A program made the position numbers and the translations under genes. The notes beneath the pieces are model-generated. The model made no database searches. It was given only the letters and a program-made list of their open reading frames with translations, and was not told where the DNA came from. DNA of 64,000 nt from a bacterium (GTDB lineage Bacteria; UBA8248). The stretch is taken from positions 1,984,001 to 2,048,000 of the forward strand of contig OZ253442.1 in assembly GCA_965261085.1 (NCBI GenBank), given 5' to 3'. Each line of letters opens with the position of its first letter. Positions within the stretch are counted from its first letter, which is position 1. Below are positions 18,377 to 47,921 of this stretch, piece by piece.

Positions 18377-18978
18377 ACTCCCCCTTGAGGGTCAATCCCG
18401 ATTGAAGAATGAGGGATTGTCGCAGAAGCCGAGCCCTTTGGGGGGCTGTTGAAAAAGTTATGATTTCGTGATTCGGCGTATGGAGCCGACTGGGGAGGTA
18501 GGAGACATGACTCCCCCCTTGAGGGGGAGTCGCAGAAGCCGAGCGTTTTTTGCGCGAAGGCTGATGCGGTGAGGGGTATGCTTCTAAAATAAAAGCTCCC
18601 CCCACCGGCGCGGCTTCGGACTCTGTCCTCGCCTTGCCGACTCCCCCTCAAGGGGGGAGTCATTTCATAAGCATATGTCGATTGAGAAATTCATTCCCTG
18701 TTTTTGGGGGACTTTTTCAACAGCCCCCTTTGGGCGAAGGCTGATGCGGTGGGGGGGCAATCGCGACCGAAGAGGGAGCGATTGCTTAGGGATGAAAAAA
18801 ATAACGGGCGGACATAAGGGTCCGCTTTCACAAAAAGCGCAGCCCCTCCTTTCTCAGTCGGTCGGGGAATCCCTCCTTTATCAGTTGGAATTCACCCCCC
18901 ACCGGCTCGTTTGCGGGCTTCGCCCTTACCTCACCGACGGACTTTCCCCTCGGAAAGCCCGACCCTCAAGGGGGGAGT
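18377..18978. repeat. Cluster of REP-like palindromes (CTCCCCCTTGAGGGGGAG family)
   Basis: Repeated units ...GTCGCAGAAGCCGAGC...GCGAAGGCTGATGCGGTG and inverse CCCCCCACCGG...CCCTCAAGGGGGGAGT; perfect 26-bp IR at 18507-18532/18638-18663. Confidence 0.8.
18441..18728. mobile_element. 288-bp MITE with IS1182-like ends
   Basis: Perfect 18-bp TIR GGGGGCTGTTGAAAAAGT/ACTTTTTCAACAGCCCCC; TTTG target duplication; removal restores a REP unit. Confidence 0.85.
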
Positions 18979-19064
18979 GTTCCCACACCTGCATGAGGGG
19001 GAGTGATTTTGAATATCTCAAGGGGTTAATCCCTCAGCCTCGGTTGGAAATATCCCCCTCTCTA

Positions 19065-20033
19065 CTACCTACGCAACAAATTTTCTTGCACCGATTCCGT
19101 CTCCCGCTTCGGGGCCTTGAGCGGCAGGCCGAGCACGCGGGCCGGGTTTTTGTGCAGCATCGTCTCTATCTCGCTGGGTTTGATGCCGTTTTCCAGCATG
19201 AGCTGAACGAACACGCGCAGGCCCTCCCAGGGGGGCGCGTTGTGCAGTTGGCCGAGATCCGTCGATAGAATCGTGCGCGCGGGGCCTACCGCCTTCACCA
19301 TCTTCGCCTGCTCCTTCACGGAGATGGGCGGGGCGCTCTTATCCGTAGGGTATGCGCCCCAGTGGGTGAAGCAGAAGATCGCCAGATGCTCGATGTACGC
19401 CCCCATTTTTGCGAATTCCACCTGCTGTTCAATGGATGCGTCCACGATGTATTCGGGATGCTGCACGATGATGTGCTTCACTCCTTCTTCTTTCGCGAGG
19501 GGGATTAAGGCGCGCACCTCATCCACGCTCAGGTGTCCCGTGCTCAGGCAGATTCCCGCATCGGCGATGAGTTTGCAGATGGTTCTGACTTCCGCGTGTA
19601 TTTTGGCGCGCTTCTCGTCGGAGAAGATGGTGAGGCCCTTCTCTTGGAGCTTCACGCCTTGTACCTGCTTCATGCCCGGAAAATGCGGCGCGCCCAGTTT
19701 TTCCAAGTGGTTCAGCGCGTTGATGGTGGGCATCCACACCATCTTCGCCCCCATCTTGATGGCGGTGTCCACCGCGAAGGGGTTGAAACCGCCCACCGGG
19801 CTGTTGAGCGTAATGCCCCCGTAGATTTCGATGGCGTCGCCCATCACCTCGCGCACGATGGGGATGCGGCCCGACGTATCGCCGTGGTGAAACTTGAACA
19901 CAACGCCGCGCATCCCTGCCGAAGCCGCCCCGCGCGCGCACTCGATGTGGTCGCAGACGCGCGGGAACAGGCTGGGCGATGCGTGGATGTGGGTGTCGAT
20001 TGCGCCGTGCAGCAGCCTCTGGTCTTCTCTCAT
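19065..20033 (-). CDS. Amidohydrolase-fold protein (DUF6282-like)
   Basis: IDTHIH, STGHL, VQHP, STDLGQ TIM-barrel metal motifs. Confidence 0.8.
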   Translation of the reverse strand: MREDQRLLHGAIDTHIHASPSLFPRVCDHIECARGAASAGMRGVVFKFHHGDTSGRIPIVREVMGDAIEIYGGITLNSPVGGFNPFAVDTAIKMGAKMVWMPTINALNHLEKLGAPHFPGMKQVQGVKLQEKGLTIFSDEKRAKIHAEVRTICKLIADAGICLSTGHLSVDEVRALIPLAKEEGVKHIIVQHPEYIVDASIEQQVEFAKMGAYIEHLAIFCFTHWGAYPTDKSAPPISVKEQAKMVKAVGPARTILSTDLGQLHNAPPWEGLRVFVQLMLENGIKPSEIETMLHKNPARVLGLPLKAPKRETESVQENLLRR

Positions 20034-20228
20034 GCTTGTACTCTCCAGTTTTCATGTGGAATAAGACGGCCTCAAGGCTACAGAATCGCCGCCCTTCGGG
20101 CAACGCGAATCCCTCTTTCACCCCACCCGGCGTTGCGGCTATAGTATCGCCGCACCCACCGGAATGAACGAGCGCAGGACGGCGATAAAAATTTTGATGA
20201 AACGATTGTGTGAAAGGAGCAGTGCAGA

Positions 20229-21038
20229 ATGAAAATCGGTTATGTGGTCGCAACGCCCGACGTGACGACGCCGCTCATGCCCGCGGTGCGCGGCGCGTTC
20301 CGGGACAATCTCACTTTTTTGGCGGATTTGGGCTTTGACGGCGTGGAACTCGCGATTCGCGACACCGCCGCTTTCGATAAGGACGAACTGCGCCGCACGC
20401 TCAAGAAATCGGGACTGGAAGTCTCCCTCATCGGCACGGCGCCGATTTCCTATCAGGACGAGATTGAACTCTGCCACCCCGACGCGGATGCGCGCGCCAA
20501 GGCCCTGGAGCGCCTTTTCGGGCACATCGATTTCGCGGGCGAGTTGGGTTGTCCGGTGAACATCGGCCGCTTCCGGGGGAATCTGCTGGAAGACGAGCGA
20601 AGAGGGGAGTCCGAAGCCTGGATGTGGGATTCGCTCCGTGCGGGTGCGGACAGGGCAGGGGAGCGCGGCATACGCATGCTCTTCGAGCCGCACCACCGCT
20701 TCAACACGAACTTCGTGCGCTCCACCCAAGATGGCCTCGCGTTTCTCGACGAAATGAACCACGAGGCGATGGGTTTTCTGATCGACAGCTTTCACATGAA
20801 CATCGAGGACGCCTCCTTCGCGGGATCGATCCGCGAGGCGGGCGCGCGGATCGATTACTTTCACATAGCAGACAACACGCGCACCTACCCGGGTTCGGGC
20901 CATATTCCCTTTGGTGAGATCATCGCCGCGCTAAAAGAGGTGGGCTATGGGGGCTATCTCTCCGCCCAGCTCGCCCAGAAGCCCGACTTCGAGACGGCGG
21001 CGACCAGAACGATGGAATATCTTAAGGCGCGCCTGTGA
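20229..21038 (+). CDS. Sugar phosphate isomerase/epimerase (IolO/xylose-isomerase-like TIM barrel)
   Basis: GFDGVEL, FEP, DSFHMNIE, HIADN, PGSGH. Confidence 0.88.
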   Translation: MKIGYVVATPDVTTPLMPAVRGAFRDNLTFLADLGFDGVELAIRDTAAFDKDELRRTLKKSGLEVSLIGTAPISYQDEIELCHPDADARAKALERLFGHIDFAGELGCPVNIGRFRGNLLEDERRGESEAWMWDSLRAGADRAGERGIRMLFEPHHRFNTNFVRSTQDGLAFLDEMNHEAMGFLIDSFHMNIEDASFAGSIREAGARIDYFHIADNTRTYPGSGHIPFGEIIAALKEVGYGGYLSAQLAQKPDFETAATRTMEYLKARL

Positions 21039-21060
21039 TTCTCGTGATTTCGGAGGTGAG

Positions 21061-26431: not shown

Positions 26432-27676
26432 ATGACATGGGGCGGTTCTCTACAAAGGAATTATCTGTTTTCAGAATATGAAATATCTTCCCTGCTTACA
26501 GGGCAGGAGAAAGCTGTGCGCGACGAGGTTGCTTCCATTGATGGGAATCGTCTGCTCAACACAAGCGTTGACGACTTATGTGGATACTTCGTTAAAAAAT
26601 ATAGACTTCATCCACCTATCTTGTTGGAGGATAAGGCTGTCGTCGATCCGCAAGAAACGCAGATCGATGTCAGTCAGGACCCTGACCGCTTTGTTCGGGA
26701 TCCCTCGCGTCCACTCTACGTAACTGGTACTCGGGTCACATTTGAAATCCCTATTGAAGGGGACGCCAATTTCTTCAAGGTCCAAGCCAGCACTTCTACC
26801 TATTCACCTCCCGTAGCTGATATCCAGGGCAACACCCTTTTGCTGAGTGTATCTGGAACTAATCTAACCCCCGAGGGTACGAAATCCCAGATAGATCGAT
26901 CGCTGGATGAAATAAAACAGCATCTTGGTTGGATTGAAAACGATGTGAAGCCGTTTAATGAGCGACTCGAATCCTTGGCGAGGGAAGCAATTAAAGCTCG
27001 TCGACAGAAATTGCTCGCTGATCAAAATCTGGTCGCCTCTCTTGGATTTCCATTAAAACGACGTGACGATGCTCCAACAACCTATGTGGCACCCGAAGTG
27101 CGTCGCAAGGCCATTCCAGAGTTGCCAAAGGCAAGTTCGACCCCATTCCAACCTGAGCCCGAACTTGATATGGAGAACTATGAGCACATACTGAAAGTGT
27201 GTTCCAACATGGTGCAGGTCATGGAGCGGAGCCCGAGCGCGTTCCCGGACATGAAGGAGGAAGATCTTCGGACCCACTTTTTGGTTCAGTTGAACGGTCA
27301 TTATGAAGGAAAGGCTACAGGAGAAACCTTCAATTTTTCAGGCAAGACAGATATATTGATTCGGGAGCAAGATCGGAACATCTTCATCGCTGAGTGCAAA
27401 TTTTGGAGCGGTCCGAAGGGATTGCTTGAGACTATTGATCAAATCCTTGGCTACGCGAATTGGCGCGACACCAAGACGGCCATTCTGCTCTTTAACCGCA
27501 ATAAGAACTTCAGCCGGATTTTGGAGGAAATTCCCAAAATTGTTGAAAGCCACCCTAAATGTAAACGTCAGCGGGAATATGCATCGGAAACCAGTTTCAG
27601 GTTTACCTTAGGGCATAAAGATGACGAAAATCGCGAACTCCTTTTGACAATTTTCGCGTTTAATGTCCCGAAGTGA
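26432..27676 (+). CDS. Hypothetical protein with C-terminal PD-(D/E)xK nuclease domain
   Basis: AT-richer; E...GKTDILI...IAECKFW...DQILGY. Confidence 0.75.
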   Translation: MTWGGSLQRNYLFSEYEISSLLTGQEKAVRDEVASIDGNRLLNTSVDDLCGYFVKKYRLHPPILLEDKAVVDPQETQIDVSQDPDRFVRDPSRPLYVTGTRVTFEIPIEGDANFFKVQASTSTYSPPVADIQGNTLLLSVSGTNLTPEGTKSQIDRSLDEIKQHLGWIENDVKPFNERLESLAREAIKARRQKLLADQNLVASLGFPLKRRDDAPTTYVAPEVRRKAIPELPKASSTPFQPEPELDMENYEHILKVCSNMVQVMERSPSAFPDMKEEDLRTHFLVQLNGHYEGKATGETFNFSGKTDILIREQDRNIFIAECKFWSGPKGLLETIDQILGYANWRDTKTAILLFNRNKNFSRILEEIPKIVESHPKCKRQREYASETSFRFTLGHKDDENRELLLTIFAFNVPK

Positions 27677-27710
27677 TACTTGGTTAAAGTGGGGATCGCG
27701 TGAAAAAACG

Positions 27711-27740: not shown

Positions 27741-27743
27741 CCC

Positions 27744-28151: not shown

Positions 28152-28157
28152 GGTGGG

Positions 28158-29337: not shown

Positions 29338-29559
29338 CTGCGGAACCCTCCTATTCCTTACAATATATAATAATGCCTTACTTTATGTAAATTACAAGGA
29401 GAAATGGAATTCGAGTTTCCCTCTCATATGCATAGGAGTAATCCAGTGCGATTTGAGGTCATGCCCGATTCAAGGGGTACTTCACCAAGCCGCCATGCAT
29501 TACTCCGCATTCGCCGTGGTGGGGTTTTCGTCGGGATGGGGCACAATCCCTTCCTCATC

Positions 29560-31081: not shown

Positions 31082-31272
31082 TCATCAGGCGGGATTGACC
31101 CGCGGCAAGCTCTACGGCATTGCCAGGAACGCAGCGCCGGACTTAGGCGAGAAGAACGACCGCAGGTGGCTTATTTGCGGAGTAAAGCGACAACGGCGGT
31201 AAAATCAGCGGGCCTTGAATCGTGGGTCCAGGTAATTCCGTAACCAGTCTCCGACCAGATGCCGCCTCCGGC

Positions 31273-33570: not shown

Positions 33571-34302
33571 TGGCGGGGTCTCAGCGACGACATTTACTAC
33601 CTTTCCACTTGATCGGACCATTCAGATTCTCCGCTTGTCCATACATTTCTTCCGCACCGCAAATCGCCGTAAACAGATCAAGAACACCAACAGCAAACCC
33701 AACCGCAAGCGCTTCCGGTATTTCCCTGATGTGGTTGATCTGAAAATTTGACACCAAAACATCTTGCGTCTTGCGGATACCTGGCCTTATCTCTCTAAAG
33801 ACACGCCAACGACTCACGACCCGGCGGCTTTTTCGTCTGGAATGCATCAAATTTAGATTTTATTCGTTGTATTTGCAACTACTATATGAAAAGAATAGTT
33901 CTCCTTCCGCCCGTTTAGAGGCGGAGAGCGGTCTTCATCGGCGGTGAAATCCCGTTATCCTGTTGATGTCATTGGGGAATATTCGTTGTCCCGGTCTCGT
34001 TCGGGATTCGTAGTCCGCAGGATGTAATCAAAACGAAAGCGGATTCCTTAAAACTCCTGCGCACCTCAGAGCGCCCTTGTCGGACCATTGAGTAGTCAGC
34101 ACTAAATTCCGGCTTACTTCCGGTCATGATCCGCTCCGCCGCCTCCGGGAACGTCGGCTCAGGGACCACCGCTCCGCGCTCTCGTTTCAATGTAAGGTCC
34201 ATGCGATCCTGACAGATAGAACAGGCGCAACCGCCGGCCAAGTAAGATAATAGACAGAGCGCCAGGAGATTTAACTCTGATTACAGCGGGCCATCGTTTG
34301 AA

Positions 34303-36967: not shown

Positions 36968-38397
36968 CAGCGGTTTTCTTCATCCAGTTGTGTTTGCATC
37001 TCCTGGAAGACGGCCCTATCGTCGATCACGCGGCGCGCCTTGAAATCCGTTCGGGGGATCGAGCCCGGCTCGACGATCTCCACGGCCGTCCGCAGCCCGA
37101 GCACCTTCTGCAATTGGCGCTCAACCTCAGTGCAGAACCGGGCGGCGCCGTCAGCATTGGCGAAGGTCTCGGTGTCGGCCTCGACGCTCAACAGTAACTC
37201 GTCCATTGCCGCCTCGCGGCTGATCACGATCCGGTGCTCTCCGCCATAGTGCGCAAGTTCGTTGAGCGCGGCGTCTATCTCGCTTGGATAAACATTCTCG
37301 CCGCGGATCGTGAACATGTCATCGATGCGCCCGAAAATACCGTGCGGCAGGCGCGGATAGGTCCGTCCACACGGGTTCAGTTCGTTGACCCATCGAGTCA
37401 GGTCCCCCGACGCCAGGCGGATCATTGGCTGAGACACGCGTTCGAGATGGGTGTACACAGGCGTTCCTCGTTCCCCGTAGGGGACCCGACGCATGGTTTC
37501 GGGATCGCACACTTCCGTGTAGACGACGTCCTGCCAGCAGAGCATTCCGTCCGTCTCGGCCGAACTTGCCACGTTCATCCACGGACTCATCTCGGCCATG
37601 GAGCCGCTGTCGTAAACCTTGGCCCCGTAGAGCCCCTCGATGCGCTCGCGGATGGCCGGGATCGAGGCGCCGGGCTCACCGGAAAAGAACATGATTTTGA
37701 GCTGCATGTCGCGAGGGTTCAGGCCCTCGTCTTCCGCGACCTGGGCGAGGCGCAGGGCGTAGGTCGGCGTACCGTAGAAGGCGGTGGGCTTCAGCATGTC
37801 GAGCCATTGCACGCAGCGCGCCGACATGCCAGACGCGCCGGCGCCAAACGGGAAAGATTTCGCACCGAGGCGTTCTGCGCCGGCGAGCGCCCCCCAGCTC
37901 CCCATATAGAGAGAAAATACAGCGGCAATACAAATCGTATCCCCGGGGCGCAGACCCATGCTCCACATGATACGCGCATGCGCGTTGGCTATAGCGCGCC
38001 AGTCGCCCTGTGAGATGGCGAAGGCAGTGGGTCGCCCGGTCGTGCCACTGGTGCCATGGATGTGAAAGACATCGTCTTCGCCCACGCAGAGGTAATCACC
38101 AAAGGGCGGATTGCGTTCCTGGGCCTCGCGCAGGTCCTTCTTGGTAAGGACCGGGACCTTCTCCTCGAAGTCCTCAAGCGACTTAAGCCGGCTCGGGTGA
38201 AAACCGGCCTCATCCCATTTGTGGCGATAGAGGGCTGCATGCTCGTAGGCATAGGCGCAGACTTGCTGAAGGCGCCCCAGGATGGCCTTCTCCCGGTCTC
38301 CCGCCGGCATTGTCTCCCGCCGGGGGAACCAGTAGCGGCTATCTGGAGCCGGCAGAAAGTTCTCGTCGTAAGCGGGTGGGAATGACCAGGACTCCAT
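36967..38397 (-). CDS. hcl: 2-hydroxyisobutyrate-CoA ligase (PaaK-like)
   Basis: HGTSGTTGRP, GRIDDM; N-terminus PAPDSRYWFPRRETMP resembles HCL as recalled. Confidence 0.85.
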   Translation of the reverse strand: MESWSFPPAYDENFLPAPDSRYWFPRRETMPAGDREKAILGRLQQVCAYAYEHAALYRHKWDEAGFHPSRLKSLEDFEEKVPVLTKKDLREAQERNPPFGDYLCVGEDDVFHIHGTSGTTGRPTAFAISQGDWRAIANAHARIMWSMGLRPGDTICIAAVFSLYMGSWGALAGAERLGAKSFPFGAGASGMSARCVQWLDMLKPTAFYGTPTYALRLAQVAEDEGLNPRDMQLKIMFFSGEPGASIPAIRERIEGLYGAKVYDSGSMAEMSPWMNVASSAETDGMLCWQDVVYTEVCDPETMRRVPYGERGTPVYTHLERVSQPMIRLASGDLTRWVNELNPCGRTYPRLPHGIFGRIDDMFTIRGENVYPSEIDAALNELAHYGGEHRIVISREAAMDELLLSVEADTETFANADGAARFCTEVERQLQKVLGLRTAVEIVEPGSIPRTDFKARRVIDDRAVFQEMQTQLDEENR

Positions 38398-38407
38398 GGA
38401 TATAGGC

Positions 38408-38815
38408 TCAGCGCGCGCCGCGCTCCTCCACGAGACGGGTCAGTGTATCGATAATCGTTTGCGGTGGCGTATCCTGCAGCAACACCTTGCTTACCCCCAT
38501 TTTCTTGAGCTGGACCACATCTTCGTCCGGCATAACACCGCCGGCCACGACGATCATGTCATCGGCGCCGTTGGTCCGAAGCAGTTCGAATATCTTGGGG
38601 AACACCGTCATCTGCACACCGGACAAGAGACTTACGCCGAGCACGTCAACGTCTTCCTGTACGGCAGCGGTCACCAACTCTTCCGGTGAGCGGTGAAGGC
38701 CAGTGTAGATCACGTCCATACCGGCGTCCCGCAGGGCACGGGCGACGATCTTGACGCCTCGGTCGTGACCGTCGAGACCCACCTTCGCCAGCAGGACGCG
38801 AATTGGTTGACTCAT
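38408..38815 (-). CDS. hcmB: B12-binding small subunit of hydroxyisobutyryl-CoA mutase
   Basis: GLDGHDRG DxHxxG motif, SLLSG. Confidence 0.88.
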   Translation of the reverse strand: MSQPIRVLLAKVGLDGHDRGVKIVARALRDAGMDVIYTGLHRSPEELVTAAVQEDVDVLGVSLLSGVQMTVFPKIFELLRTNGADDMIVVAGGVMPDEDVVQLKKMGVSKVLLQDTPPQTIIDTLTRLVEERGAR

Positions 38816-38839
38816 GGGGCGTTCCTCGTCGAGCTCTTA

Positions 38840-38890
38840 TTTGTATACGAAAACAGTAAACAACCTGCACAAAAAGCACCATACTGTCAA
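38840..38890 (-). promoter_or_regulatory. Putative hcm promoter with GntR/FadR-like box
   Basis: TTGACA at 38885-38890 (minus); TTGTATACGA palindrome-like at 38841-38850. Confidence 0.4.
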
Positions 38891-38972
38891 GGGAAACAGA
38901 ATCGACTCGCAGGAAGGAACGATCTCCTGGACGCTCTTGCTCACCCGAAGACACTCGTTGTGAAGTGACAAA

Positions 38973-39255
38973 AATAATTGCGAACGGCCTGGAAAAACCG
39001 CTGAATTTCCAGGCTGTTTCGCCCTGGAAAAATTGCCGGTTTTCGGGGGTTTTCGGGCCGAAAAACGCTCTTTAAAAGCGGCATCGCGCGCCCTGAAGCG
39101 GGCATTTAATCCCCTCGGCATTTGAAACACGCCCCGCATGGGCCGAAGCCCCCCTGGCCGTCGGGTTGAGGGTCGCGGCAGGAGACGGCGAGCTCGACGA
39201 GCACCCGGGGCGCCATGGGGCGGGTCTGCGCTTTCGAGACGGGATTCGGCCAGCC
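38973..39255. repeat. Direct repeat copy 1 (~280 bp), element-end-like
   Basis: Near-identical to 41747-42020. Confidence 0.92.
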
Positions 39256-39360
39256 GAACGGATCGGCCCACTCCCAGGGATGAGCGCGCATGGCGGCGAT
39301 GGCGTCGTGAAAGGCCGTCCAGGCGCTCCGGCGCGTGGCTCGCTCCGCGGCGTAGGCCGG
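39106..39360 (-). pseudogene. QueC-like C-terminal fragment
   Basis: SKAQ...LAVSCRDP...PCGACFKC matches QueC Zn-binding C-terminus; no intact 5' part. Confidence 0.5.
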
Positions 39361-39485
39361 CCTATGAGCGGGAGCGTAGCGCCAAACCCGGCGCGGTTCA
39401 GCGTGACAGCGATGTTCTCTGTTACAAATCTATGGTATAAAGAATCATGGAACTTCCTAGTTTAAGATAAGAAAGAGAGCAGCCA

Positions 39486-41468
39486 ATGCTGACTGTCATC
39501 AAGTCTGTGAATACCGTAAAGCTGGCCATTGCAGGGGTTGGAAATTGTGCGAGCTCGTTGGTTCAGGGCATTGCGCATTATAGGAAGGGCCGCGTCGAGG
39601 TCCTGCCCGGTCTGATGCACCCCTATATCGGGGGCTGGGGCCCGGGTGATCTGGAGGTCGTGGCCGCCTTTGACGTCGACCGCCGAAAGGTCGGGCGACC
39701 CCTGGAGGAGGCGATCTTCGCCAAGCCCAATTGCACGATGGTCTTCGAGGATGAGCTTCCCTCATCGGGCGTCGTGGTCCAGATGGGACCCGTTCTCGAC
39801 GGCGTTGCGCCACACATGGCGGATTATCCCGATGACGAGGCATTCCGTCCGGCCGATGCCGATCCGGTTGATATCGCGGATGTCTTTAAGCGAACCGGCG
39901 CGGAGGTGCTGGTCTGCTACCTGCCGGTCGGCTCGGAGCAGGCGGCGCTGCATTACGCCCAGGCCTGCCTCGACACGGGCGTTGCCATGGTGAACTGCAT
40001 ACCCGTGTTCATCGCCTCAAATCCCAGCTGGGCGGAGAAGTTCAAGATCGCTGGGGTGCCAATCGTGGGCGACGACATCAAGAGCCAAGTCGGCGCCACG
40101 ATCGCACATCGGCTCTTGACACGTCTGTTCGGCGACCGCGGTTACACCCTGGACCGCACCTATCAACTGAACACCGGCGGCAACACCGACTTCCTCAACA
40201 TGAAGGCCCTGGACCGGCTGACATCGAAGAAGGTGTCCAAGACGGAATCCGTTCAATCGCAACTCGATGTGCGCCTCGGCGGGCGCGACATCCATATCGG
40301 CCCGTCAGACTACGTGCCCTGGCAAGGCGACAACAAAGTCGCCTTTATCCGCATGGAAGGACGCGGGTTTGGCAGCGCTCCCATCGAGATCGAGATGCGC
40401 CTCTCGGTCCAGGATTCGCCCAACAGCGCCGGCGTCGTCATCGACGCCGTCCGCTGCGCCAGGCTCGGCATGGTGCGGGGTATGGCGGGTCCGCTGGAAG
40501 CGCCGTCTTCCTATTACATGAAATCGCCGCCGGTCCAGATGCGCGATTCCGTCGCCCGCGACTTGTGTGACGCGTTCATCGAAGAAGGGCGCGCCGAAGC
40601 ACCGGCGGCCCGAATCGTGAAGTCGGCGGCGGAGCAGACGCGTGTTTCAACCACGGTGGGGGAGCCTGGTGACATGACCGGAGAGGAGGCGAGCGCCGGC
40701 ATGTCCGGGCATTTCGCCAGGGTGGCGGAGGTCTACGGCACGGTCCGGACCACCGATCGGGACCCGGTACACTATATTCGCGATGCCCTGGCCGATCGGG
40801 CAAACGTGCGCGCGGCCGATATCGGATGCGGCGACGGGCGCTACGACAGGCTGCTGTTCGACCATATACCCAACCTGCACCTCGTCTGCGTGGATTCCAG
40901 CGCGCCGATGCTGGAACGACTCTTCGATTGCCTCGCTGAGGCGCGCATCGACAATTTCGTGACCCGGTTGTCCGGCGTCAACGACTTGGCGCTCGAGGAC
41001 GATTCCCTGGACGCCATCCTCACCTTCAATGCGGTGCACCATTTCAACGTTCCCGCCTTTCTGGCCAAAGCCCGGCGCGCGCTCAGAGACGCCGGCCGCC
41101 TGTTCATCTATACACGCACGCCCGAACAGAACGCGGGCACCCTATGGGGGCGTTTCTTCCCGCGCTTCACCGAGAAGGAATCGCGGCTCCACACTATCAA
41201 AAGCATGGAAGCATGGATCGCCGGGACACCCGGCCTCGAAATGGTCGAGGCGAGAGTGTTTAGATATGCCCGGACGGCAAGCCTGGACCGCCTGTTCGAA
41301 CAAATGCGGAGCCGGCACTACTCGACCTTTTCGCTCTATGACGAGCGGGAGTTCGAGGAAGCATGTCGTGGTTTCGACGAACGAATCCGCGACGCGTTCG
41401 ATGATCTCGAGGCCATTCGATGGTACGACGAGAACATCATGCTGCACCTGGTTAGAATCGAGGTCTGA
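39486..41468 (+). CDS. Inositol-3-phosphate synthase (Ino1) fused to class I SAM methyltransferase
   Basis: GVGNCASS, GDDIKSQVGAT, GGNTDFLNM, DSPNSAG; then DIGCGDGRY SAM motif I. Confidence 0.88.
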   Translation: MLTVIKSVNTVKLAIAGVGNCASSLVQGIAHYRKGRVEVLPGLMHPYIGGWGPGDLEVVAAFDVDRRKVGRPLEEAIFAKPNCTMVFEDELPSSGVVVQMGPVLDGVAPHMADYPDDEAFRPADADPVDIADVFKRTGAEVLVCYLPVGSEQAALHYAQACLDTGVAMVNCIPVFIASNPSWAEKFKIAGVPIVGDDIKSQVGATIAHRLLTRLFGDRGYTLDRTYQLNTGGNTDFLNMKALDRLTSKKVSKTESVQSQLDVRLGGRDIHIGPSDYVPWQGDNKVAFIRMEGRGFGSAPIEIEMRLSVQDSPNSAGVVIDAVRCARLGMVRGMAGPLEAPSSYYMKSPPVQMRDSVARDLCDAFIEEGRAEAPAARIVKSAAEQTRVSTTVGEPGDMTGEEASAGMSGHFARVAEVYGTVRTTDRDPVHYIRDALADRANVRAADIGCGDGRYDRLLFDHIPNLHLVCVDSSAPMLERLFDCLAEARIDNFVTRLSGVNDLALEDDSLDAILTFNAVHHFNVPAFLAKARRALRDAGRLFIYTRTPEQNAGTLWGRFFPRFTEKESRLHTIKSMEAWIAGTPGLEMVEARVFRYARTASLDRLFEQMRSRHYSTFSLYDEREFEEACRGFDERIRDAFDDLEAIRWYDENIMLHLVRIEV

Positions 41469-41475
41469 CCGGCCC

Positions 41476-41715
41476 CTGTCCGGGACACGGCTCGCGCTGG
41501 GCTTTTCCTTCATGGGCGTCGTAGCCGCGGAGATGCTGGCCGCGGACAAGGGCATCGGCTTCCTCATCATGCAGAGCACGAACATCATCGCGCCCGCTGA
41601 GATGTTTGTCGGATTTTTTATGCTGGGCTCGTTCGGCCTCATCACCGACCAACTCTTCCGAATGACCATCCACAGGCTCATGCGACGTTATATGATTTCC
41701 ATGACGCACGAATGA
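41476..41715 (+). pseudogene. C-terminal fragment of SsuC/TauC-type ABC permease
   Basis: LSGTRLALGFSFMGVVAAEM...GIGFLI; no N-terminal half. Confidence 0.7.
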
Positions 41716-41746
41716 GACAGGGGTCCGATCAGTGTAGTCGAACAAC

Positions 41747-42020
41747 AATAATTGCGGATGGCCTGGAAAAACCGCTGGATTTCCAGGTTGTTTCGCCCTG
41801 GAAAAATCGCCGGTTTTCGGGGGTTTTCGGGCCGAAAAACGCTCTTTAAAAGCGGCATCGCGCGCCCTGAAGCGGGCATTTAATCCCCTCGGCATTTGAA
41901 ATACGCCCCGCATGGGCCGAGGCCCCCCTAGCCGTCGGGTTGAGGGTCGCGGCAGGAGACGGCGAGCTCGACGAGCGCCATGGCGTGGGCCTGCGCTTTC
42001 GAGACGGGATTCGGCCAGCC
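41747..42020. repeat. Direct repeat copy 2
   Basis: Matches 38973-39255 with a 9-bp deletion and few substitutions. Confidence 0.92.
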
Positions 42021-42108
42021 CCCGGTCCCAGAAGAGGGCGTCCCCCGCCTCGACGCTCAGCGCGTCGAAGGCGCGCTTGGTAATTTTGAGTTCGCTTCTT
42101 TTGGGCAT
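42021..42108 (-). pseudogene. Tyrosine integrase N-terminal arm-binding fragment
   Basis: MPKRSELKITKRAFDALSVEAGDALFWDR, truncated at repeat copy 2. Confidence 0.7.
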
Positions 42109-42310
42109 AGACCTGCCCGGAAAAATCCGTAATCAAAACGCATACGAGCGGCATCAATCCGAGGCGTATTAAAGCATAAGTATGGCGAAAATACAAGAGA
42201 GAATTGAATCGAAATTATCAGAAATAACTGAATATAAACAGATAGTTATCGTATGAAGAGGCGTTCAGTCGTACGATTGGCAAACAGACGGATTTGTTAC
42301 AATGTCTCAG

Positions 42311-42404
42311 CTCCCTCATCAGTCGCGACAAACCCTCCCTCATCGGTCGGGTCTGACCTCCCTCATCGGTCGGGTCTGACCTCCTGCATTGGTCGAGATT
42401 GACC
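42311..42404 (+). repeat. Four tandem ~23-bp units related to the 7-13-7 motif
   Basis: CTCCCTCATCGGTCGGGTCTGAC x2 exact plus two degenerate flanking units. Confidence 0.85.
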
Positions 42405-42483
42405 ACCGTGAGGAGGTGAGGCGTACTCATCGACTCAGGCGTGACAAGGAAATATGAAAATAATCCAATTTCCTGAAAATATC

Positions 42484-42512
42484 GATAAATTCACGGGGTT
42501 TTTCGATAAATT
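42484..42512. repeat. 29-bp AT-rich box, inverted copy at 47637-47665
   Basis: GATAAATTCACGGGGTTTTTCGATAAATT is the perfect reverse complement of 47637-47665. Confidence 0.9.
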
Positions 42513-42577
42513 GATTGGATGATATGATACTTGAATTATATATTGTAAATCATTGATATAGCTGGATATATAACTTT

Positions 42578-43453
42578 TTATCTGGATGCGGAATTCACGA
42601 GATAGATGCCCGATGAGATAAGAACAGCTCCCCCGAGCATGAGCAGCGTCAGGGGTTCCGCGAGCAGCAAAGCGCCCATCAAAACCCCGAATACGGGGGT
42701 CAAGAACATGAACACGCCCACGCGGCTCGCCGGGTAGTCCGTCAGCAGCCACAGCCAGGGAATCATGGCAAAGCCCGTGCCGATGAGGCCGCTATAGCCC
42801 ACCCCGGTGAGCACGTTCGTATCCGTGAGATCGGGCCAGGGCTCGCCCCGAAGCGAGGCGATGAGAAAGAACGGGAGCACGGCCAGAAGCTGGGTCCAGG
42901 CGGTGATTCTGAAGGCGTCGAAACTCCTCAGCCTCAATTTCAGGAAAATCGACTGCACCGCCCACACAACAGCCGCCAGGACGACGATGGCGTCCCCGTA
43001 CCAGGTGGAACCGCCGGCCGAGGAGAGCTTGTCGCCAAAGAGAAACACCATGCCCAGACTCGCGGCCATGAAGCCGAAAACCGCACGGACACCCACCCTC
43101 TCATGGGGCAGAATCCACGCCGCGAGCGCCGTCAGCAACAGGGGCTGGACGTATAGGAACAACGAGGCGCGCCCCGCTGTGGTGTGGTTCACCCCGTGAT
43201 AGTAGGTGATGAACATGATGTTGTGCAGGCAGGCGTTGATCCAGAAATCGCGATTCTCCTTCCCGCCGCCCGGGTGCGGAGGCAGAACCGGCATTTTTCG
43301 GATAAACATGATCAGAAAAACGCTCGACGCCGAGATGAGGCCCCGGAGCCAGAGGAACGTAAAAGGCTCCACGCCGCGCAGGCCTATCTTGGCCGCCGGA
43401 AAGCTCAGGCCCCACAGAAAAGTGACGGTGAAAATCAAAACGAAAAATCGCAA
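42578..43453 (-). CDS. DMT/EamA transporter
   Basis: LWGLSF, two EamA repeats, FLTPVFG. Confidence 0.9.
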   Translation of the reverse strand: MRFFVLIFTVTFLWGLSFPAAKIGLRGVEPFTFLWLRGLISASSVFLIMFIRKMPVLPPHPGGGKENRDFWINACLHNIMFITYYHGVNHTTAGRASLFLYVQPLLLTALAAWILPHERVGVRAVFGFMAASLGMVFLFGDKLSSAGGSTWYGDAIVVLAAVVWAVQSIFLKLRLRSFDAFRITAWTQLLAVLPFFLIASLRGEPWPDLTDTNVLTGVGYSGLIGTGFAMIPWLWLLTDYPASRVGVFMFLTPVFGVLMGALLLAEPLTLLMLGGAVLISSGIYLVNSASR

Positions 43454-43530
43454 TTCCTGCCTGTTCCTTCAGCAAATCCGCTCTATACCGGGTATCGAAC
43501 AGCGGGTGAAATTCGGGGAAAGCGCCGCCT

Positions 43531-44154
43531 TTAGCTGTCGGACTCTTTTTTCTTCGGAAACGGCTCCAGGTCCTTCAAATCCACTTTTTGCTCCAGTTCG
43601 TCGTGACAGGCATCGCAGCGCGGCTGCGCCGTGGCCGCCACCATGAACCCTTTCGCCCTCTCGCCGTCAAGCCGGTGGCCGTTGTGGCACTGCACGCAGT
43701 TCGCCTTTAACTCCGCGTGGTCTGAAATGGCGTGAAAGGCGTCATCGGCCAGTTCCAGAAGACGCTCCTCTTCATGACACTTCACACAGTCATTATCGAG
43801 AATAGGATGGAAAACGCGCGAGGGCTGCTCATAATCGCCAATAATGAATTTATACAGATCCTTGTTCGCCAGAATCGTCGTGCGAATCATGCCCGTGATG
43901 CCCTCTTCCCCGTGACAGGAGATGCACCGCACGTCGCCCACGCTCTTATGCCATCCGCCCAGCGTCTGCACCGCGTTCTTCACGCGCGCGCCGTCATCGA
44001 GATAATCCTGATGATCCTGTAAGTGACACGCCGTGCAAAAAGGATCGTAGGACTCCACGGCGCGAATCCCGTACAACCCGCCGACCCCGGCCAAGGGGGA
44101 TAAGACAATGATCAGAATCAACCATTTCCACCATCGCCCCCAAAATCTTCGCAT
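43531..44154 (-). CDS. Membrane-anchored pentahaem cytochrome c (NapC/NirT-like N-terminus)
   Basis: N-terminal TM; CTACH, CISCH, CVKCH, CVQCH, CDACH. Confidence 0.88.
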   Translation of the reverse strand: MRRFWGRWWKWLILIIVLSPLAGVGGLYGIRAVESYDPFCTACHLQDHQDYLDDGARVKNAVQTLGGWHKSVGDVRCISCHGEEGITGMIRTTILANKDLYKFIIGDYEQPSRVFHPILDNDCVKCHEEERLLELADDAFHAISDHAELKANCVQCHNGHRLDGERAKGFMVAATAQPRCDACHDELEQKVDLKDLEPFPKKKESDS

Positions 44155-44300
44155 TTAGGTTCTCCTTGGCCATCACATGCTAACACCGCCACTCCCCACT
44201 CACCAGGATATAGAACCGCCATCCCATTTTCTGCGTGTTAGATCTTCCTCATTATAGCGCGATTTGCTAGGATGGCTCTTGATGATAGGAGGTTGATCCG

Positions 44301-44663
44301 ATGGCGAGAACAAGATTCAGCGCGAACAAACGCCGCCCGGGGCGCAGGAGCGCTCCCAAGCCGGCCGCCCTTACCGGAGAAAGCGCGAAACAGATCGCCG
44401 CGCGCCTGAAATCCTCTGCGAGCGTGGGCAAGAACGCGCAGGACTACCGGCGCAAATCGCTTGAAATTCACGGCTGGTTCTGTGCGAAATGCGGCCGGGA
44501 TTTCGATGAAAACAACCTCCATATCTTGACGGTTCACCACCGTGACGGTGACCACAAAAACAATCCGCCGGACGGGAGCAACTGGGAGAATCTGTGTGGG
44601 GAATGCCACGAGGATGAACACTCCCGCGACATGCTTGGCCGTTATCTGAGCGATGACAGTTAA
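44301..44663 (+). CDS. yajD: YajD-family HNH nuclease
   Basis: CAKCGR, LTVHHRDGDHKNNPPDGSNWENLC..CH. Confidence 0.85.
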   Translation: MARTRFSANKRRPGRRSAPKPAALTGESAKQIAARLKSSASVGKNAQDYRRKSLEIHGWFCAKCGRDFDENNLHILTVHHRDGDHKNNPPDGSNWENLCGECHEDEHSRDMLGRYLSDDS

Positions 44664-44684
44664 TAATCTAAAACACCCACCATC

Positions 44685-45971
44685 ATGATATTGTCGGTTA
44701 AGCCAACCATCGCAAAAGGAACCACCAGCGTACCCGGTTCGAAATCCCATTCCATCCGCGCCGTCGCGTTCGCATCCCTGGCTTCCGGGAAAAGCGTGAT
44801 ATCAAACCCCCTGGATTCAGAGGACGGCCTCTCGGCGGCCAGCGTCTACGCGAGCTTTGGCGCTAAAATACACAAGGAAAATGAGGTCTGGTCCGTGGAG
44901 GGTTTCGGCGCCCGGCCCAATGCGCCTCAAGGAATTCTCGACGTGGGAAATTCAGGGACCACCTGCCGGATGGCGCTCGGCACCGCCGCGCTCATACGGG
45001 AGGGCGAAGCTTGTTTCGATGGCGATCCCCAGACCAGAAAACGCCCGATGGGGCCATTGCTCGATGCCCTCCAAAACCTGGGCGCAAAGACGCAATACGG
45101 CGGCGGCTTCCTGCCCGTCACGGTGGGCGGCCCGTGGCGCGGCGGCCGGACGAAAGTGGACGGGACGACCAGTCAGTTTACGTCCTCCTTGTTGTTGAAC
45201 GCACCTTTCGGCGAGGAGACAACCATCATCGAGCCGATTGATCTGAACGAGCGCCCATACGTCGAGATGACGCTGTGGTGGCTTGATCGTCTGGGCTTAC
45301 GATACGAGCGCGATGAATACCGCAGCTTCATGGTTCCGGGCGGACAGACGCTCTCTAGATTCGAAGTTACCGTCCCCGCCGATTGGAGTTCCGCCGCCTT
45401 TCTCGTGGCCGCAGGCGCGCTGCCGGGTGGTGACGTAACGCTCGAGGGGCTGGATCTCAACGACTCTCAAGGGGATAAGGAGATTCTCAGATTCGTCGAG
45501 GAAATGGGCGCTGATGTTCTCGTCACAGAGACCAGCGTCCGAATACGCGGAAAAGCGCTGCGCGGAGGTGAATTCGACTTAAACGCCACGCCCGATCTGC
45601 TGCCAGTCATGGCCGTGCTCGGTGCGTTCGCAGATGGGGAGACCAGACTCCTCAACACGCCCCAGGCCCGCATCAAGGAAACGGATAGAATCTCCGCCAT
45701 GCGCGAAGTGCTCGAAACGTTGGGCGGTGAGGCGAGAGAACTGACGGATGGCATCATTATTAAGGGTGGCGGATTGAAGGGCGGGGCTGTTCATGGTTTC
45801 GGCGATCACCGCGTCGTCATGTCCGCAGCCATTGCCGGGCTCGCCGCCCCGGAGGGAGTATCGGTCGACACGGCGGAGGCGATGGCGGTAACATTTCCTG
45901 ATTTTTGCGAACGCATGGCGTCACTGGGCGCCGATATACAGACGAAGGATTCATTCGATGCCAATCTATGA
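44685..45971 (+). CDS. aroA: 3-phosphoshikimate 1-carboxyvinyltransferase
   Basis: PGSKS, VGNSGT, SQF, RIKETDRI, DHRVVM. Confidence 0.96.
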   Translation: MILSVKPTIAKGTTSVPGSKSHSIRAVAFASLASGKSVISNPLDSEDGLSAASVYASFGAKIHKENEVWSVEGFGARPNAPQGILDVGNSGTTCRMALGTAALIREGEACFDGDPQTRKRPMGPLLDALQNLGAKTQYGGGFLPVTVGGPWRGGRTKVDGTTSQFTSSLLLNAPFGEETTIIEPIDLNERPYVEMTLWWLDRLGLRYERDEYRSFMVPGGQTLSRFEVTVPADWSSAAFLVAAGALPGGDVTLEGLDLNDSQGDKEILRFVEEMGADVLVTETSVRIRGKALRGGEFDLNATPDLLPVMAVLGAFADGETRLLNTPQARIKETDRISAMREVLETLGGEARELTDGIIIKGGGLKGGAVHGFGDHRVVMSAAIAGLAAPEGVSVDTAEAMAVTFPDFCERMASLGADIQTKDSFDANL

Positions 45972-46290
45972 GTATGAGTGCAAGGAGTGCGGCTTTATTT
46001 CCGGCCATCTGGTGATGAAGCCGGCGGACAGGAGAAAACTCACCTGCCGCTCCTGCGGAAACAAAAAACTCAGAAAAATCATGTCGCGCTTTTCTTCTCA
46101 CCAGACCGAAGCCCAGCGGCTCGAATCGTTCGACCCATCGAAGCCGCAGGACGGTTCTTTCTACAAGGACGATCGCAACATCGGGCTCTGGGCCCAAAAA
46201 CGCGCCCAGCAGCTGGGCGTCGACCTTGGCGATTCTTTCGGTGAAACCCTGGAAAAGGGACGCTCGAAGAAAATTCTCGATAACCTATGA
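45958..46290 (+). CDS. FmdB-family Zn-ribbon protein
   Basis: MPIYEYECKECG...CRSCG. Confidence 0.85.
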   Translation: MPIYEYECKECGFISGHLVMKPADRRKLTCRSCGNKKLRKIMSRFSSHQTEAQRLESFDPSKPQDGSFYKDDRNIGLWAQKRAQQLGVDLGDSFGETLEKGRSKKILDNL

Positions 46291-46294
46291 GGTC

Positions 46295-46978
46295 ATGTTG
46301 ACCCTCGAAATTAAGATGAGCGAGGCGCTTCGCGCCGAGGCGGTGCCGCTTTGGGAAACAATCCATGAGCATTCCTTCGTTCGGGGCCTCGGTGAAGGCA
46401 CCCTGCCTCTTGCGCAATTTCGCTTCTATATGTGCCAGGACTACATTTTCTTGAAGGAATACAGCCGCGTCATCGCCCTGGCCGTCGTGAAAGCCCCCGA
46501 ACTGGCGGATATGGGGCGTTTCGCCGACCTGCTGAACGCCACGCTGAACACGGAGATGGAACTCCACCGGAGTTTTGCGGCGAAATTCGGCATATCAACC
46601 GCAGAGATTGAGGCGACAAAGCCCGCCCCCACGTGCAAGGGATACACCGATTTCCTGCTCGAGGCGGCCTATTCGGGCACGTTCGGGGAAATCGCCGCCG
46701 CCATGCTACCCTGCCAATGGGACTACGCCATCATCGGCGAGTTGCTCGCCTCCAAGGGGGTCCCTGAAAACGCGCCGCTCCACGCCGAGTGGATAGAGAC
46801 TTACGCGTCCGATGAATTCGCTCAACTCGCCCGCTGGCTGCGCGAAATGCTCGACCAAGCCGCATCGACCGCCAGCCCCGCCGAGCGTGAGCGCATGCGC
46901 GCGCACTTTCTGATGGGCACGCGATATGAATACCTCTTCTGGGATATGAGTTGGAACATGGAAGAGTGGCCCCTATAG
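46295..46978 (+). CDS. tenA: Thiaminase II
   Basis: YMCQDYIFL, PC, WIETY, EYLFW. Confidence 0.9.
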   Translation: MLTLEIKMSEALRAEAVPLWETIHEHSFVRGLGEGTLPLAQFRFYMCQDYIFLKEYSRVIALAVVKAPELADMGRFADLLNATLNTEMELHRSFAAKFGISTAEIEATKPAPTCKGYTDFLLEAAYSGTFGEIAAAMLPCQWDYAIIGELLASKGVPENAPLHAEWIETYASDEFAQLARWLREMLDQAASTASPAERERMRAHFLMGTRYEYLFWDMSWNMEEWPL

Positions 46979-46999
46979 CCCAAGCCGGATAGAGCCGAT

Positions 47000-47536
47000 A
47001 TGTCCCCCAGAACGCGAAAAGACATCCCCAACCCCAAACGGTGCACATGGGCCGAGGGCGACCCGATGATGGAGAAATACCATGACGAGGAATGGGGGTT
47101 TCCCGTCCGAACGACCCGGAAACATTTTGAACAACTGACGCTCGAAATCTTTCAGGCGGGCCTCTCCTGGCGAACCATCCTCCATAAGCGCGCGGAGTTC
47201 AGAAAGGAATTTTTGCGATTCTCACCCGAGAAGGTCGCCCTCTTCACCGAGAAGGATATTAGACGCATTCTCGGGAACACCGGCGTCGTGCGGAACCGAA
47301 AGAAAATCGAGGCGACCATCGAGAACGCCAAAAGATTCCTGGCCATCCAGAAAAAACATGGCTCGTTCAACCGCTACCTCGCCTCCCTGCCGGACGATCT
47401 ACCATCGTTACAAAAGATATTCCGCGAGGAATTCACCTTCATGGGACCCAAGATCGCAGAAGCCTATCTCGAAAGCGTGGGGAAGATACCCGAACTCCAC
47501 GATCCGCGCTGCTGGCGGAATAAAACAAATAGATAA
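47000..47536 (+). CDS. tag: DNA-3-methyladenine glycosylase I
   Basis: RCTW, YHDEEWG, FQAGLSW, RNRKKIEA. Confidence 0.93.
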   Translation: MSPRTRKDIPNPKRCTWAEGDPMMEKYHDEEWGFPVRTTRKHFEQLTLEIFQAGLSWRTILHKRAEFRKEFLRFSPEKVALFTEKDIRRILGNTGVVRNRKKIEATIENAKRFLAIQKKHGSFNRYLASLPDDLPSLQKIFREEFTFMGPKIAEAYLESVGKIPELHDPRCWRNKTNR

Positions 47537-47636
47537 CCATTTATATATCAATAAATTACATATTTGTTACTAAAGTGTATTATCATATCTGTTCACCCGT
47601 TCGTCTCTCCTCTTTTGCTTTCAGAAATACCCCGTT

Positions 47637-47665
47637 AATTTATCGAAAAACCCCGTGAATTTATC
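47637..47665. repeat. Inverted copy of the 42484-42512 box
   Basis: Perfect 29-bp reverse complement. Confidence 0.9.
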
Positions 47666-47869
47666 TAAATTTATCGAATTGTTCAGTTCATACCTGAGCG
47701 GTATGTGAGAGTTTGCGCTTCTCCTAAGAAGGCAAGATCGCGCCACTGAAGCCGAATCGCCCGTTTCATTTTCTCCCTCCTTCAATCGATGAGAACACTC
47801 TCTTTTCCCGAGCGGAATTCTCGCCTGGCTGGACCAAAACCCCGTGACGGCAAATGCGGGAAAATGCGT

Positions 47870-47921
47870 GATCAATACCGAGCGGGGAGGGAGGGATAGC
47901 CGAGCGGGGAGTGAGGGATTG
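47870..47921 (-). repeat. 7-13-7 motif copy with 22-bp tandem duplication
   Basis: CAATACC-N13-GGGATAG; units CCGAGCGGGGAGGGAGGGATAG / CCGAGCGGGGAGTGAGGGATTG. Confidence 0.75.

Follow-up and report, generated by a model that had tools for sequence, protein, structure and literature searches.

Repetitive extragenic palindromes (REPs) are reported to be targets of insertion sequences (ISs) from five families (PMC1525189). IS1272/TnSha1, of the IS1182 family, is described as targeting hairpins, with deletion of the stem-loop and without duplication (PMC4923244; PMC5678879), and the legend to Figure 13 of one of these studies draws duplication of the loop only among the possible pathways (PMC5678879). 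The present work deals with a dispersed hairpin found in a 64,000-nucleotide stretch of the genome of a UBA8248 bacterium (assembly GCA_965261085.1, contig OZ253442.1, positions 1,984,001 to 2,048,000), referred to as the window throughout. An earlier note, made from the letters of the window alone, had pointed to an unannotated dispersed palindrome with two 7-nt arms around a 13-nt spacer, and had taken it for a possible recombinase site bordering accessory DNA. The existence of the palindromic element is supported by our analysis. It most probably represents a genus-specific family of extragenic stem-loops, of the kind of REPs and bacterial interspersed mosaic elements (BIMEs), with about 270 intact copies in the genome and serving as an IS target.

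Number and structure of the hairpins

The genome to which the window belongs (G000) is a single contig of 4,267,820 bp with 58.7% G+C and a completeness of 96.27%. Because the arms vary, a strict pattern of perfect arms (AATCCC-N13-GGGATT) misses copies and finds only one in the window. Copies were therefore counted with a position weight matrix (PWM) built iteratively on the whole genome, with a cut-off of 18 bits. Such a matrix or covariance scan of the genome and its relatives had been suggested in the earlier note as a check of the palindrome; in the genome it returns 270 copies at 18 bits or more (136 on the plus and 134 on the minus strand), against none in the reversed genome.

The consensus reads C-AATCCC / TC CY TCNTC RG TC / GGGATT-G / ACCCYC, and its most conserved columns are those of the loop and of the tail, not those of the arms. 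As many as 193 arm combinations occur among the 270 copies. In the most frequent of them the two arms pair perfectly, yet one combination differs from the next on both sides: CAATCCC/GGGATTG (12 copies), GAATTCC/GGAATTC (10), CAATCGC/GCGATTG (10) and CAGCCCC/GGGGCTG (6), to which may be added TGAACGC/GCGTTCG, CAGTTCC/GGAACTG and CGAACCC/GGGTTCG. Inside the spacer, pair 9-15 is C-G in 117 copies and T-A in 109, and pair 8-16 is C-G in 160, G-C in 18 and T-G in 26. Mutual information is highest at these two inner pairs and, among the outer ones, at pairs 2-22 and 4-20; it is low when the partners are slid by one position. Since the arms and the inner pairs covary, the unit has a 7-bp outer stem that encloses a 2x2 TC/TC internal loop, followed inwards by a 2-bp inner stem; a TCNTC pentaloop forms the apex, and an ACCC tail comes after the 3' arm. 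The complementary strand has tandem G·A / A·G at the internal loop. With ViennaRNA, several copies adopt the unit fold, both as RNA and as DNA of either strand, with energies of about -5 to -18 kcal/mol; the fold of decayed copies is not better than that of shuffled sequences.

An independent test made use of a covariance model built from 15 copies of eight genomes, which was searched in 1.2 Mb of G008, the closest complete relative. It was observed that 68 matches were returned at E <=0.01 and that 92.3% of the cells of their alignment are paired, compared with 70.3 ± 1.1% in shuffles, none of 500 of which reaches the observed value. Both-sided changes are seen in eight of the nine pairs, and the slid controls are 15.6-54.6% paired.

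Location and arrangement of the copies

Location was assessed with gene calls from a crude caller of our own, based on codon-usage log-odds (3596 calls, 82% coding). Intergenic DNA, which makes up 17.8% of the bases, contains 261 of the 270 copies, distributed over 142 intergenic regions. The remark that no copy lies inside a core operon is thus true but trivial, many copies lying beside ordinary metabolic genes. Spacers between convergent genes are the most densely occupied (107 copies in 135 kb), followed by the co-directional (115 in 444 kb) and the divergent ones (39 in 181 kb).

The units occur in four settings: alone, in head-to-tail chains, in inverted pairs with the tails outward, and inside larger mosaic repeats. 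Start-to-start steps between neighbours on the same strand fall sharply on two values, 22 nt in 14 pairs and 24 nt in 22 pairs, and in the corresponding chains only the last unit has its own 3' arm. Close neighbours on opposite strands have their tails outward in 28 cases against 2; in the 14 closest inverted pairs, the halves are unlike variants having 11-20 of 25 positions in common. Fixed 3' flanks belonging to larger mosaic repeats (ACCCCCCACC... or ACCCTCAAGGGGGGAGT) follow 96 of the 270 copies. Several dozen further copies are split by IS insertions or by insertions of miniature inverted-repeat transposable elements (MITEs). Hence, these are short imperfect palindromes of high copy number and extragenic location, as REPs are in the broad sense, and they alternate with other conserved motifs in the manner of BIMEs.

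The copies of the window are the following (coordinates, strand, description).

18388-18420, minus: hairpin copy; PWM 44.7 bits; 7-bp stem in the RNA fold, -8.8 kcal/mol
18753-18785, minus: hairpin copy, arms CAATCGC/GCGATTG; PWM 39.6 bits; fold -14.5 kcal/mol, z -5.75, with an inner 2-bp helix
18866-18898, plus: hairpin copy, arms GAATCCC/GGAATTC; PWM 38.2 bits
19025-19057, plus: degenerate copy; PWM 12.9 bits
27710-27742, plus: hairpin copy with a decayed 3' arm, left edge of a double toxin-antitoxin (TA) block; PWM 35.7 bits
29544-29559, plus: 5' half hairpin (arm and loop up to TCATC), severed by an IS; from the sequence and intact orthologues
31082-31102, plus: 3' half of the same hairpin (duplicated TCATC, remaining loop, 3' arm and ACCC tail); from the sequence
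42304-42406, plus: head-to-tail array of four units, period 23-24 nt; Tandem Repeats Finder (TRF); PWM 24.3, 40.9, 25.1 and 18.0 bits
47868-47922, minus: two head-to-tail units, period 22 nt; TRF; PWM 28.5 and 26.6 bits

Reading of the sequence and the PWM place every copy listed in the earlier note where it had been put. A weaker copy had been suspected near 19027; a degenerate sequence is indeed there but scores below the cut-off. The copy at 18753-18785 had not been listed. In the 18.4-19.0 kb cluster, the copy at 18388-18420 belongs to the loop subfamily TCATTCTTCAATC and is joined to half of a GACTCCCCC..GGGGGAGTC palindrome, and the copy at 18866-18898 is followed by a ACCCCCCACCGG... 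mosaic repeat, with flanks that occur 8-64 times in the genome. Nearly all of 18370-18980 is composed of sequences present from 8 to more than 64 times in the genome. TRF delimits the two arrays as 42304-42395 (period 23-24 nt) and 47878-47925 (period 22 nt); in the former, only some units have a matching 3' arm.

Another palindrome family, ACTCCCCCC-TTGAG-GGGGGAGT, is present at 18375-18395, 18510-18530 and 18638-18660 and throughout the genome. Further palindrome families (GTCATTCCGGCG...CGCCGGAATGAC and GGGACAGGC...GCCTGTCCC) lie in long spacers of the genus, and so does a repeat of about 160 bp, represented by 33905-34063 and present in at least 25 copies.

The arrangement of the units bears on the proposal that they are orphan or degenerate CRISPR repeats. 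Their length of about 30 nt and their palindromic character would suit this idea, and a likeness to some CRISPR repeats had been mentioned in the earlier note. However, a spacing scan found no array, its candidates being plain tandem repeats, and the tandem units follow each other at 22-24 nt without spacers. No Cas1 was found in the genome, and the two richest stretches have no CRISPR-DR match in Rfam at E up to 10. There is next to no chance that the hairpins are CRISPR repeats.

A second proposal to be weighed here is that the motif exists mainly as a cis-acting RNA element, either a stabilising or terminating 3' stem-loop or a loop bound by a protein or by the ribosome. The covarying stem and conserved loop, the enrichment between convergent genes and the pyrimidine loop with CCTCC-like words would agree with such a function; we take the loop to resemble an anti-Shine-Dalgarno sequence, and its complement a Shine-Dalgarno sequence. 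Against this, orientation with respect to the upstream gene is 67:48, with no preference beyond that; random positions drawn from the spacers that hold the copies are just as near to stop codons, and the distance to the 3' ends of genes is that expected by chance (median 205 vs 231 nt). The stem is followed by ACCCYC and not by a run of T, which is not the organisation of an intrinsic terminator. No bias in orientation with respect to the replichores was detected (p=0.13). In Rfam searches, tRNA alone passed the gathering threshold, and at E up to 10 the two richest stretches gave only chance-level matches to miRNA, snoRNA and sRNA families. Four metatranscriptome runs, available as contigs, cover 41400-48800 in patches in which transcript ends and strand cannot be read. 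Finally, the fast gain and loss of copies between species (see below) is unlike conserved regulation. Altogether, an RNA element as the main reason for the motif appears improbable.

Insertion of an IS and of its MITEs into the loop

The stem-loop family is the specific insertion target of a resident IS1182-family IS and of the related MITEs, and this is the only role demonstrated for it. The window contains a copy of the IS and a MITE of this kind.

29560-31081, plus: IS1182-like IS of 1522 bp, transposase open reading frame (ORF) at 29594-31036; Pfam DUF772, DDE_Tnp_1_6 and DDE_Tnp_1
18442-18727, strand not assigned: 286-bp MITE with IS-like terminal inverted repeats, between hairpin copies of the 18.4-19.0 kb cluster; scan for pairs of terminal inverted repeats, genome position 2002442

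The 480-aa transposase matches DUF772 and DDE_Tnp_1_6 with Pfam E values of 2.1e-19 and 3.4e-15, and the IS is assigned to the IS1182 type on its predicted domain architecture (DUF772, DDE_Tnp_1_6 and DDE_Tnp_1). That this IS splits one copy of the palindrome, as had been noticed, is confirmed: the two parts lie at 29544-29559 and 31087-31100, with TCATC on both sides of the element. The hairpin is intact in two relatives (G008 L139:4212-4244 and G006 L141:2333-2365).

The genome carries 23 long copies of the IS, mostly 99.9-100% identical, the flanks of which were judged by eye from the printed sequence. A half hairpin abuts 21 of the 23 on at least one side, the other two being in unrelated sites. 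In 16 copies, the IS sits inside a single hairpin with a matching 5-bp duplication, which is always the apical pentaloop (TCNTC or its complement), the IS being in either orientation. In several others, the left and right halves derive from different hairpins, or one flank is common to another copy, a pattern expected when IS copies have recombined. In this respect, the 98 bp at 29463-29560, including the left half hairpin, are duplicated with 100% identity at genome positions 3481755-3481852, beside an IS copy whose right flank comes from a different hairpin. This duplication is a trace of recombination between IS copies.

The same preference is seen with the shorter elements. A scan with words from the IS ends gave 107 left-type and 118 right-type ends, forming some 76 MITE-like pairs; these span 166-840 bp, the main class being close to 192 bp. 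A half hairpin abuts 49 of the 107 left-type and 56 of the 118 right-type ends (about 46%), whereas it abuts only 151 of 100000 random positions. Another 14 left-type and 18 right-type ends adjoin the GACTCCCCC...GGGGGAGTC palindrome. The pentaloop duplication seen with the IS is found again in many MITEs.

These data bear directly on the possibility, raised in the earlier note as that of a transposon end, that the motif is itself a terminal inverted repeat or a remnant transposon end, as a solo end or a minimal MITE. The inverted arms and the dispersion of the copies, 20 of which (out of 270) lie within 30 nt of a terminal inverted repeat, could be cited in its favor. But the ends of the IS (GGGGTTGTTGAAAAACC...) are unrelated to the motif, which they interrupt. 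Moreover, among 169 hairpin pairs 450-4000 bp apart, the IS, at 24 copies, is the sole interior that is clearly multi-copy, with five pairs whose interiors are present in 2-3 copies being left unexamined. The motif is thus a target of transposons, and the chance that it is a transposon end is very slim.

Relatives of the transposase were found in 13 of 22 other genomes of the genus, all of them bearing the repeat; none occurs in the five repeat-free genomes nor in the one having a single match to the repeat. Relatives also occur in two genomes of another family of the same class. The flanks of 20 of these relatives were inspected, and none lies within a 7-13-7 hairpin. In the genus, they occupy the centre of other G/C-rich palindromes (ACTCCCCCC-TTGAG-GGGGGAGT or CCCCCCTGACAAGGGGGG), with 5-bp duplications, one copy being in unique sequence; the two IS copies from outside the genus are placed in a GCCGATCAT/ATCATCGGC palindrome. 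Because these flanks lie in other palindromes, the IS group targets palindrome apices generally, the lineage of G000 having specialised on the 7-13-7 hairpin.

Distribution and turnover in the genus

A degenerate pattern covering loop and tail was searched in the 22 other genomes of the genus and in 18 genomes outside it, the backwards control giving zero everywhere. The pattern occurs in 17 of the 22 (12-47 matches in sixteen, a single match in one) and in none of the 18. The repeat family is restricted to one genus. In a wider species collection, taken as a rough pointer, the matches listed comprise repeated ones in a few records of metagenome-assembled genomes and scattered single ones, attributable to chance, in unrelated phyla. 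A literature search of partial coverage retrieved no paper pairing extragenic palindromic repeats with this taxon, and we know of no earlier description of the family.

Of the five members of the genus without the pattern, four have small genomes, of 2.9-3.1 Mb, and the fifth has one of 8 Mb. The small ones (G001, G007, G009 and G020), which are 98-100% complete, are also devoid of the IS; repeat-rich genomes measure 3.3-4.6 Mb. In the fragmented assemblies of the genus, many matches to the pattern lie within about 100 nt of contig ends. For this reason, the repeats probably break short-read assemblies of the genus.

The spacer that contains the 18.4-19.0 kb cluster is bounded by the same two genes in all 22 genus genomes. 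It measures 12-101 bp in five repeat-poor genomes and 214-739 bp in twelve repeat-bearing ones, where it contains 0-3 hairpins, at differing places, as well as other palindromic repeats. A comparison of 29 collinear spacers of G000 and G008, within the first 1.2 Mb of the latter and all bearing a hairpin in one or the other genome, shows that most differ in content; one displays a clean indel of a 22-nt unit. Since the content of the spacers differs between relatives, the family is a young one, with a fast turnover.

Relation to variable DNA

In dif-type sites, conserved 11-nt arms bound by XerC/D surround a 6-nt spacer. By analogy with pdif modules, the palindrome had been proposed to resemble a recombinase site bordering small mobile modules; the reading weighed here is that of a pdif-like or attC-like core site, at which a site-specific recombinase would delimit modules such as the TA block. 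The neighbourhoods on which this proposal was built are as described. Two direct copies bracket the double TA block, which is composed of PIN/MazE/DUF7662. The copy at 27710 has an orthologous place in G008, occupied by a different hairpin variant, and on its left side the species have different DNA; the ORF on that side (26432-27676) has no Pfam match at E up to 0.1. About 200 bp to the left of the array at 42304 lies the integrase remnant that had been mentioned, comprising the first 32 codons of a recombinase gene.

42012-42108, minus: start remnant of a putative tyrosine-recombinase-element gene, 32 codons; context and not a repeat copy; tblastn to six ORF starts heading recombinase gene sets

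The array at 47868-47922 is adjoined on its right by what had been called a vapBC-TIR islet, namely a PIN toxin with an Rv0623-like antitoxin and an ORF for a TIR-domain protein (TIR_2, 4.8e-16), together at 48112-50068. A small HNH-endonuclease ORF (44424-44663) is found upstream of the EPSP synthase gene.

That copies border accessory DNA holds locally and in part. The hairpin split in G000 has a counterpart in G008, G006 and G004, where about 100 bp separate it from the orthologue of the array (42328-42406 in G000); in G000, a specific segment of 11.2 kb, parts of which are found elsewhere in the relatives, lies exactly between these two copies. However, at the left junction, the hairpin tail is joined to the interior of a gene (3' end), and the G008 gene has no hairpin at that point. 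Judging from this sequence, the junction looks like an illegitimate join rather than an exchange between two sites.

Several observations concern the content of this region. The ORF at 41452-42108(-) matches, over its first 32 residues, the N-termini of ORFs heading tandem tyrosine-recombinase sets at six other places in the genome, and continues into unrelated sequence beyond residue 32; its start is the remnant of the end of a recombinase element, at the right edge of the G000-specific segment. An RNA-library contig connects 41654 directly to 42358, omitting 703 nt, and the right-hand point falls inside the hairpin array. Such a join indicates a variant without 41655-42357 in some population, DNA carry-over into the library being possible. 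The block at 34173-41821 encodes methylmalonyl-CoA mutase, MeaB, an AMP-binding enzyme, a B12-binding protein and inositol-1-P synthase/methyltransferase. Identity to the counterparts in G008, G006 and G004 is 98-99% for this block and 88-95% for the neighbouring syntenic genes, and in G008 the two halves of the block are in permuted order. A direct repeat of 290 bp (38960-39255 and 41732-42020, 92% identical) flanks the second half. These features suggest that an exchange between species took place recently, or that an intermediate of circular or tandem form was involved.

Gene order was compared between G000 and 1.2 Mb of G008. Breaks affect 21 of 39 hairpin-bearing intergenic regions and 169 of 971 others, so that an enrichment at synteny breakpoints, a test proposed in the earlier note, is present overall but fades when long spacers are compared. 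It is reduced to 20/38 vs 101/303 for regions of at least 150 bp (p=0.03) and is gone, with the full gene set, for those of at least 300 bp (17/35 vs 75/157, p=1); with stricter gene sets, odds ratios of 1.8-3.3 are obtained. In the other 18 of the 39 regions open to this test, the neighbouring genes are conserved and collinear, which is thus the situation of about half of the copies. Spacer length explains much of the enrichment. The link of the copies to variable regions is real, but statistical and indirect.

A recombinase linked to the copies was also sought. The genome has 22 tyrosine-recombinase matches, none of them in the window, and they are no closer to hairpins than expected. For the 19 integrase matches checked, the nearest hairpin is at a median distance of about 25 kb, and, of six intact recombinase elements, only one is preceded by a hairpin in the 700 nt upstream of it. 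The 22 genes of three hairpin-dense stretches are mostly ordinary metabolic ones (NAD synthase, AhpC, PhoX, GSDH and others), with ORF6N, HTH, SLFN/AlbA_2 and an IS1595 transposase as accessory genes; no candidate for a dedicated enzyme flanked by hairpins is found among them.

Thus, the direct copies around the TA block, the 11.2-kb segment, the overall excess of gene-order breaks, the recombinase-gene remnant and the contig ending inside the array could all be invoked for a recombinase site. But the arms, which should be the part bound by the enzyme, vary with compensating changes, whereas the binding arms of dif or pdif sites are conserved. Many of the 142 loci lie between collinear housekeeping genes, both orientations are present, and units form tandem chains with 22/24-nt steps. 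As regards integron attC sites, the hairpins occupy 142 loci in both orientations, and the window has no tyrosine recombinase, intI not being told apart among the 22 matches of the genome. With variable arms, a junction partner lacking the hairpin and integrases at a distance, the recombinase-site mechanism is not supported and must be considered very improbable.

Proposed mechanism and significance

The data are best accounted for by a genus-specific extragenic stem-loop family of the REP/BIME kind that is used as a target by an IS. It is unusual in that the loop is structured and conserved and the stems are free, in that units are chained at 22/24 nt, and in that a REP-associated tyrosine transposase (RAYT) is lacking. 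The IS and the MITEs insert so that the 5-nt apical loop is duplicated and present at both of their ends. In the mechanism that we envisage, the transposase would recognise the extruded hairpin or cruciform. Either this recognition or quasi-palindrome correction would keep the arms complementary. The repeat would multiply by local duplication of units and spread by riding inside MITEs and mosaic repeats, possibly with the aid of some trans-acting function. The link to variable DNA would be secondary, and may result from long permissive spacers, from IS landing and IS-mediated rearrangement, and from illegitimate or homologous exchange at the repeats.

Several points weigh against this scheme. 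Covariation among repeat copies can reflect subfamily descent or quasi-palindrome correction, and not selection. The alignment of the G008 matches leans towards structure because it was fitted to the model, the margin being large even so. Single hairpins are moderately stable, and three of the six folded as RNA are no better than shuffles; an action of the hairpins as RNA finds no support in the tests of orientation, of distance to 3' ends and of replichores. Concerning spread, no clean pair of filled and empty sites for a single unit, with target duplication, was found, and only 24 of the 270 copies lie inside MITE-like pairs of terminal inverted repeats. Nor is there in G000 a RAYT that would account for it: no PF01797 match was obtained in this genome of 96.27% completeness, the control search being positive in 6 of 14 reference genomes. 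A further idea, which we hold to be unlikely though worth stating, is that the 22-24-nt unit of arm and structured loop could on its own constitute a minimal mobile element of the non-autonomous type, independent of RAYT and copied in a structure-specific way. The IS1182-type transposase, or a replication or repair route, would then be the candidate copier.

If this last, unlikely idea is correct, repeat families would evolve together with IS lineages, the former as landing pads and the latter as landers, since sister IS lineages of the genus use different palindromes, always at the loop apex and with a 5-bp duplication. The genus would then offer a natural series of re-targeting of a DDE transposase between defined hairpins. 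The family accounts for a conspicuous and unannotated class of sequence that fills the long intergenic regions of an uncultured genus, and gives annotators a model with which copies may be masked or labelled. It provides a clean case of an IS1182-type element inserting at a loop apex in a sequence-family-specific manner, so that recognition of hairpins by a DDE transposase becomes testable. Lastly, it calls for caution before such repeats are treated as module borders.

Comparison with known systems

With pdif sites and Xer recombination, the hairpins share inverted arms around a spacer and an occasional position on the flanks of small gene blocks. They differ from dif and pdif sites by their variable arms, by a structured spacer of 13 nt, and by copies that are far too many and too dispersed.

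The hairpins also resemble the REPs and BIMEs of Enterobacteria and Pseudomonas. As described for these, the repeats are short imperfect palindromes in hundreds of copies, almost wholly intergenic and mostly on the 3' sides of genes; they combine with other motifs into mosaics, are not the same from one related genome to another, and are the landing place of particular ISs (PMC1525189; PMC3116915; PMC3337134). There are also differences. In the present family, loop and tail are conserved and the stem is free, units are chained head to tail with 22/24-nt steps, and the inverted pairs associate unlike variants, whereas the two halves of a REPIN are near-identical. Also, in contrast with REP/REPIN-RAYT systems, no RAYT (Y1 transposase) accompanies the repeat.

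On the side of the mobile elements, IS1397 and ISKpn1 (IS3 family), and IS621 and ISPpu9/10 (IS110 family), are likewise described as specialised on a repeat of their host, which offers a safe intergenic site (PMC1525189; PMC11208160). The enzyme found here belongs to a different transposase family, being a DDE enzyme of the IS1182 type. To our knowledge, no bridge or seek RNA is associated with it. IS1272/TnSha1 of staphylococci belongs to the IS1182 family, into which the transposase domains of the present IS fit; it too takes a DNA stem-loop as target and inserts in both orientations (PMC4923244; PMC5678879). However, IS1272 is reported to delete the stem-loop, without target duplication, and to have no preference for primary sequence (PMC4923244; PMC5678879). 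In contrast, the IS described here leaves both arms of the hairpin in place, its target duplication corresponds exactly to the 5-nt apical loop, and its targets come from one sequence family.

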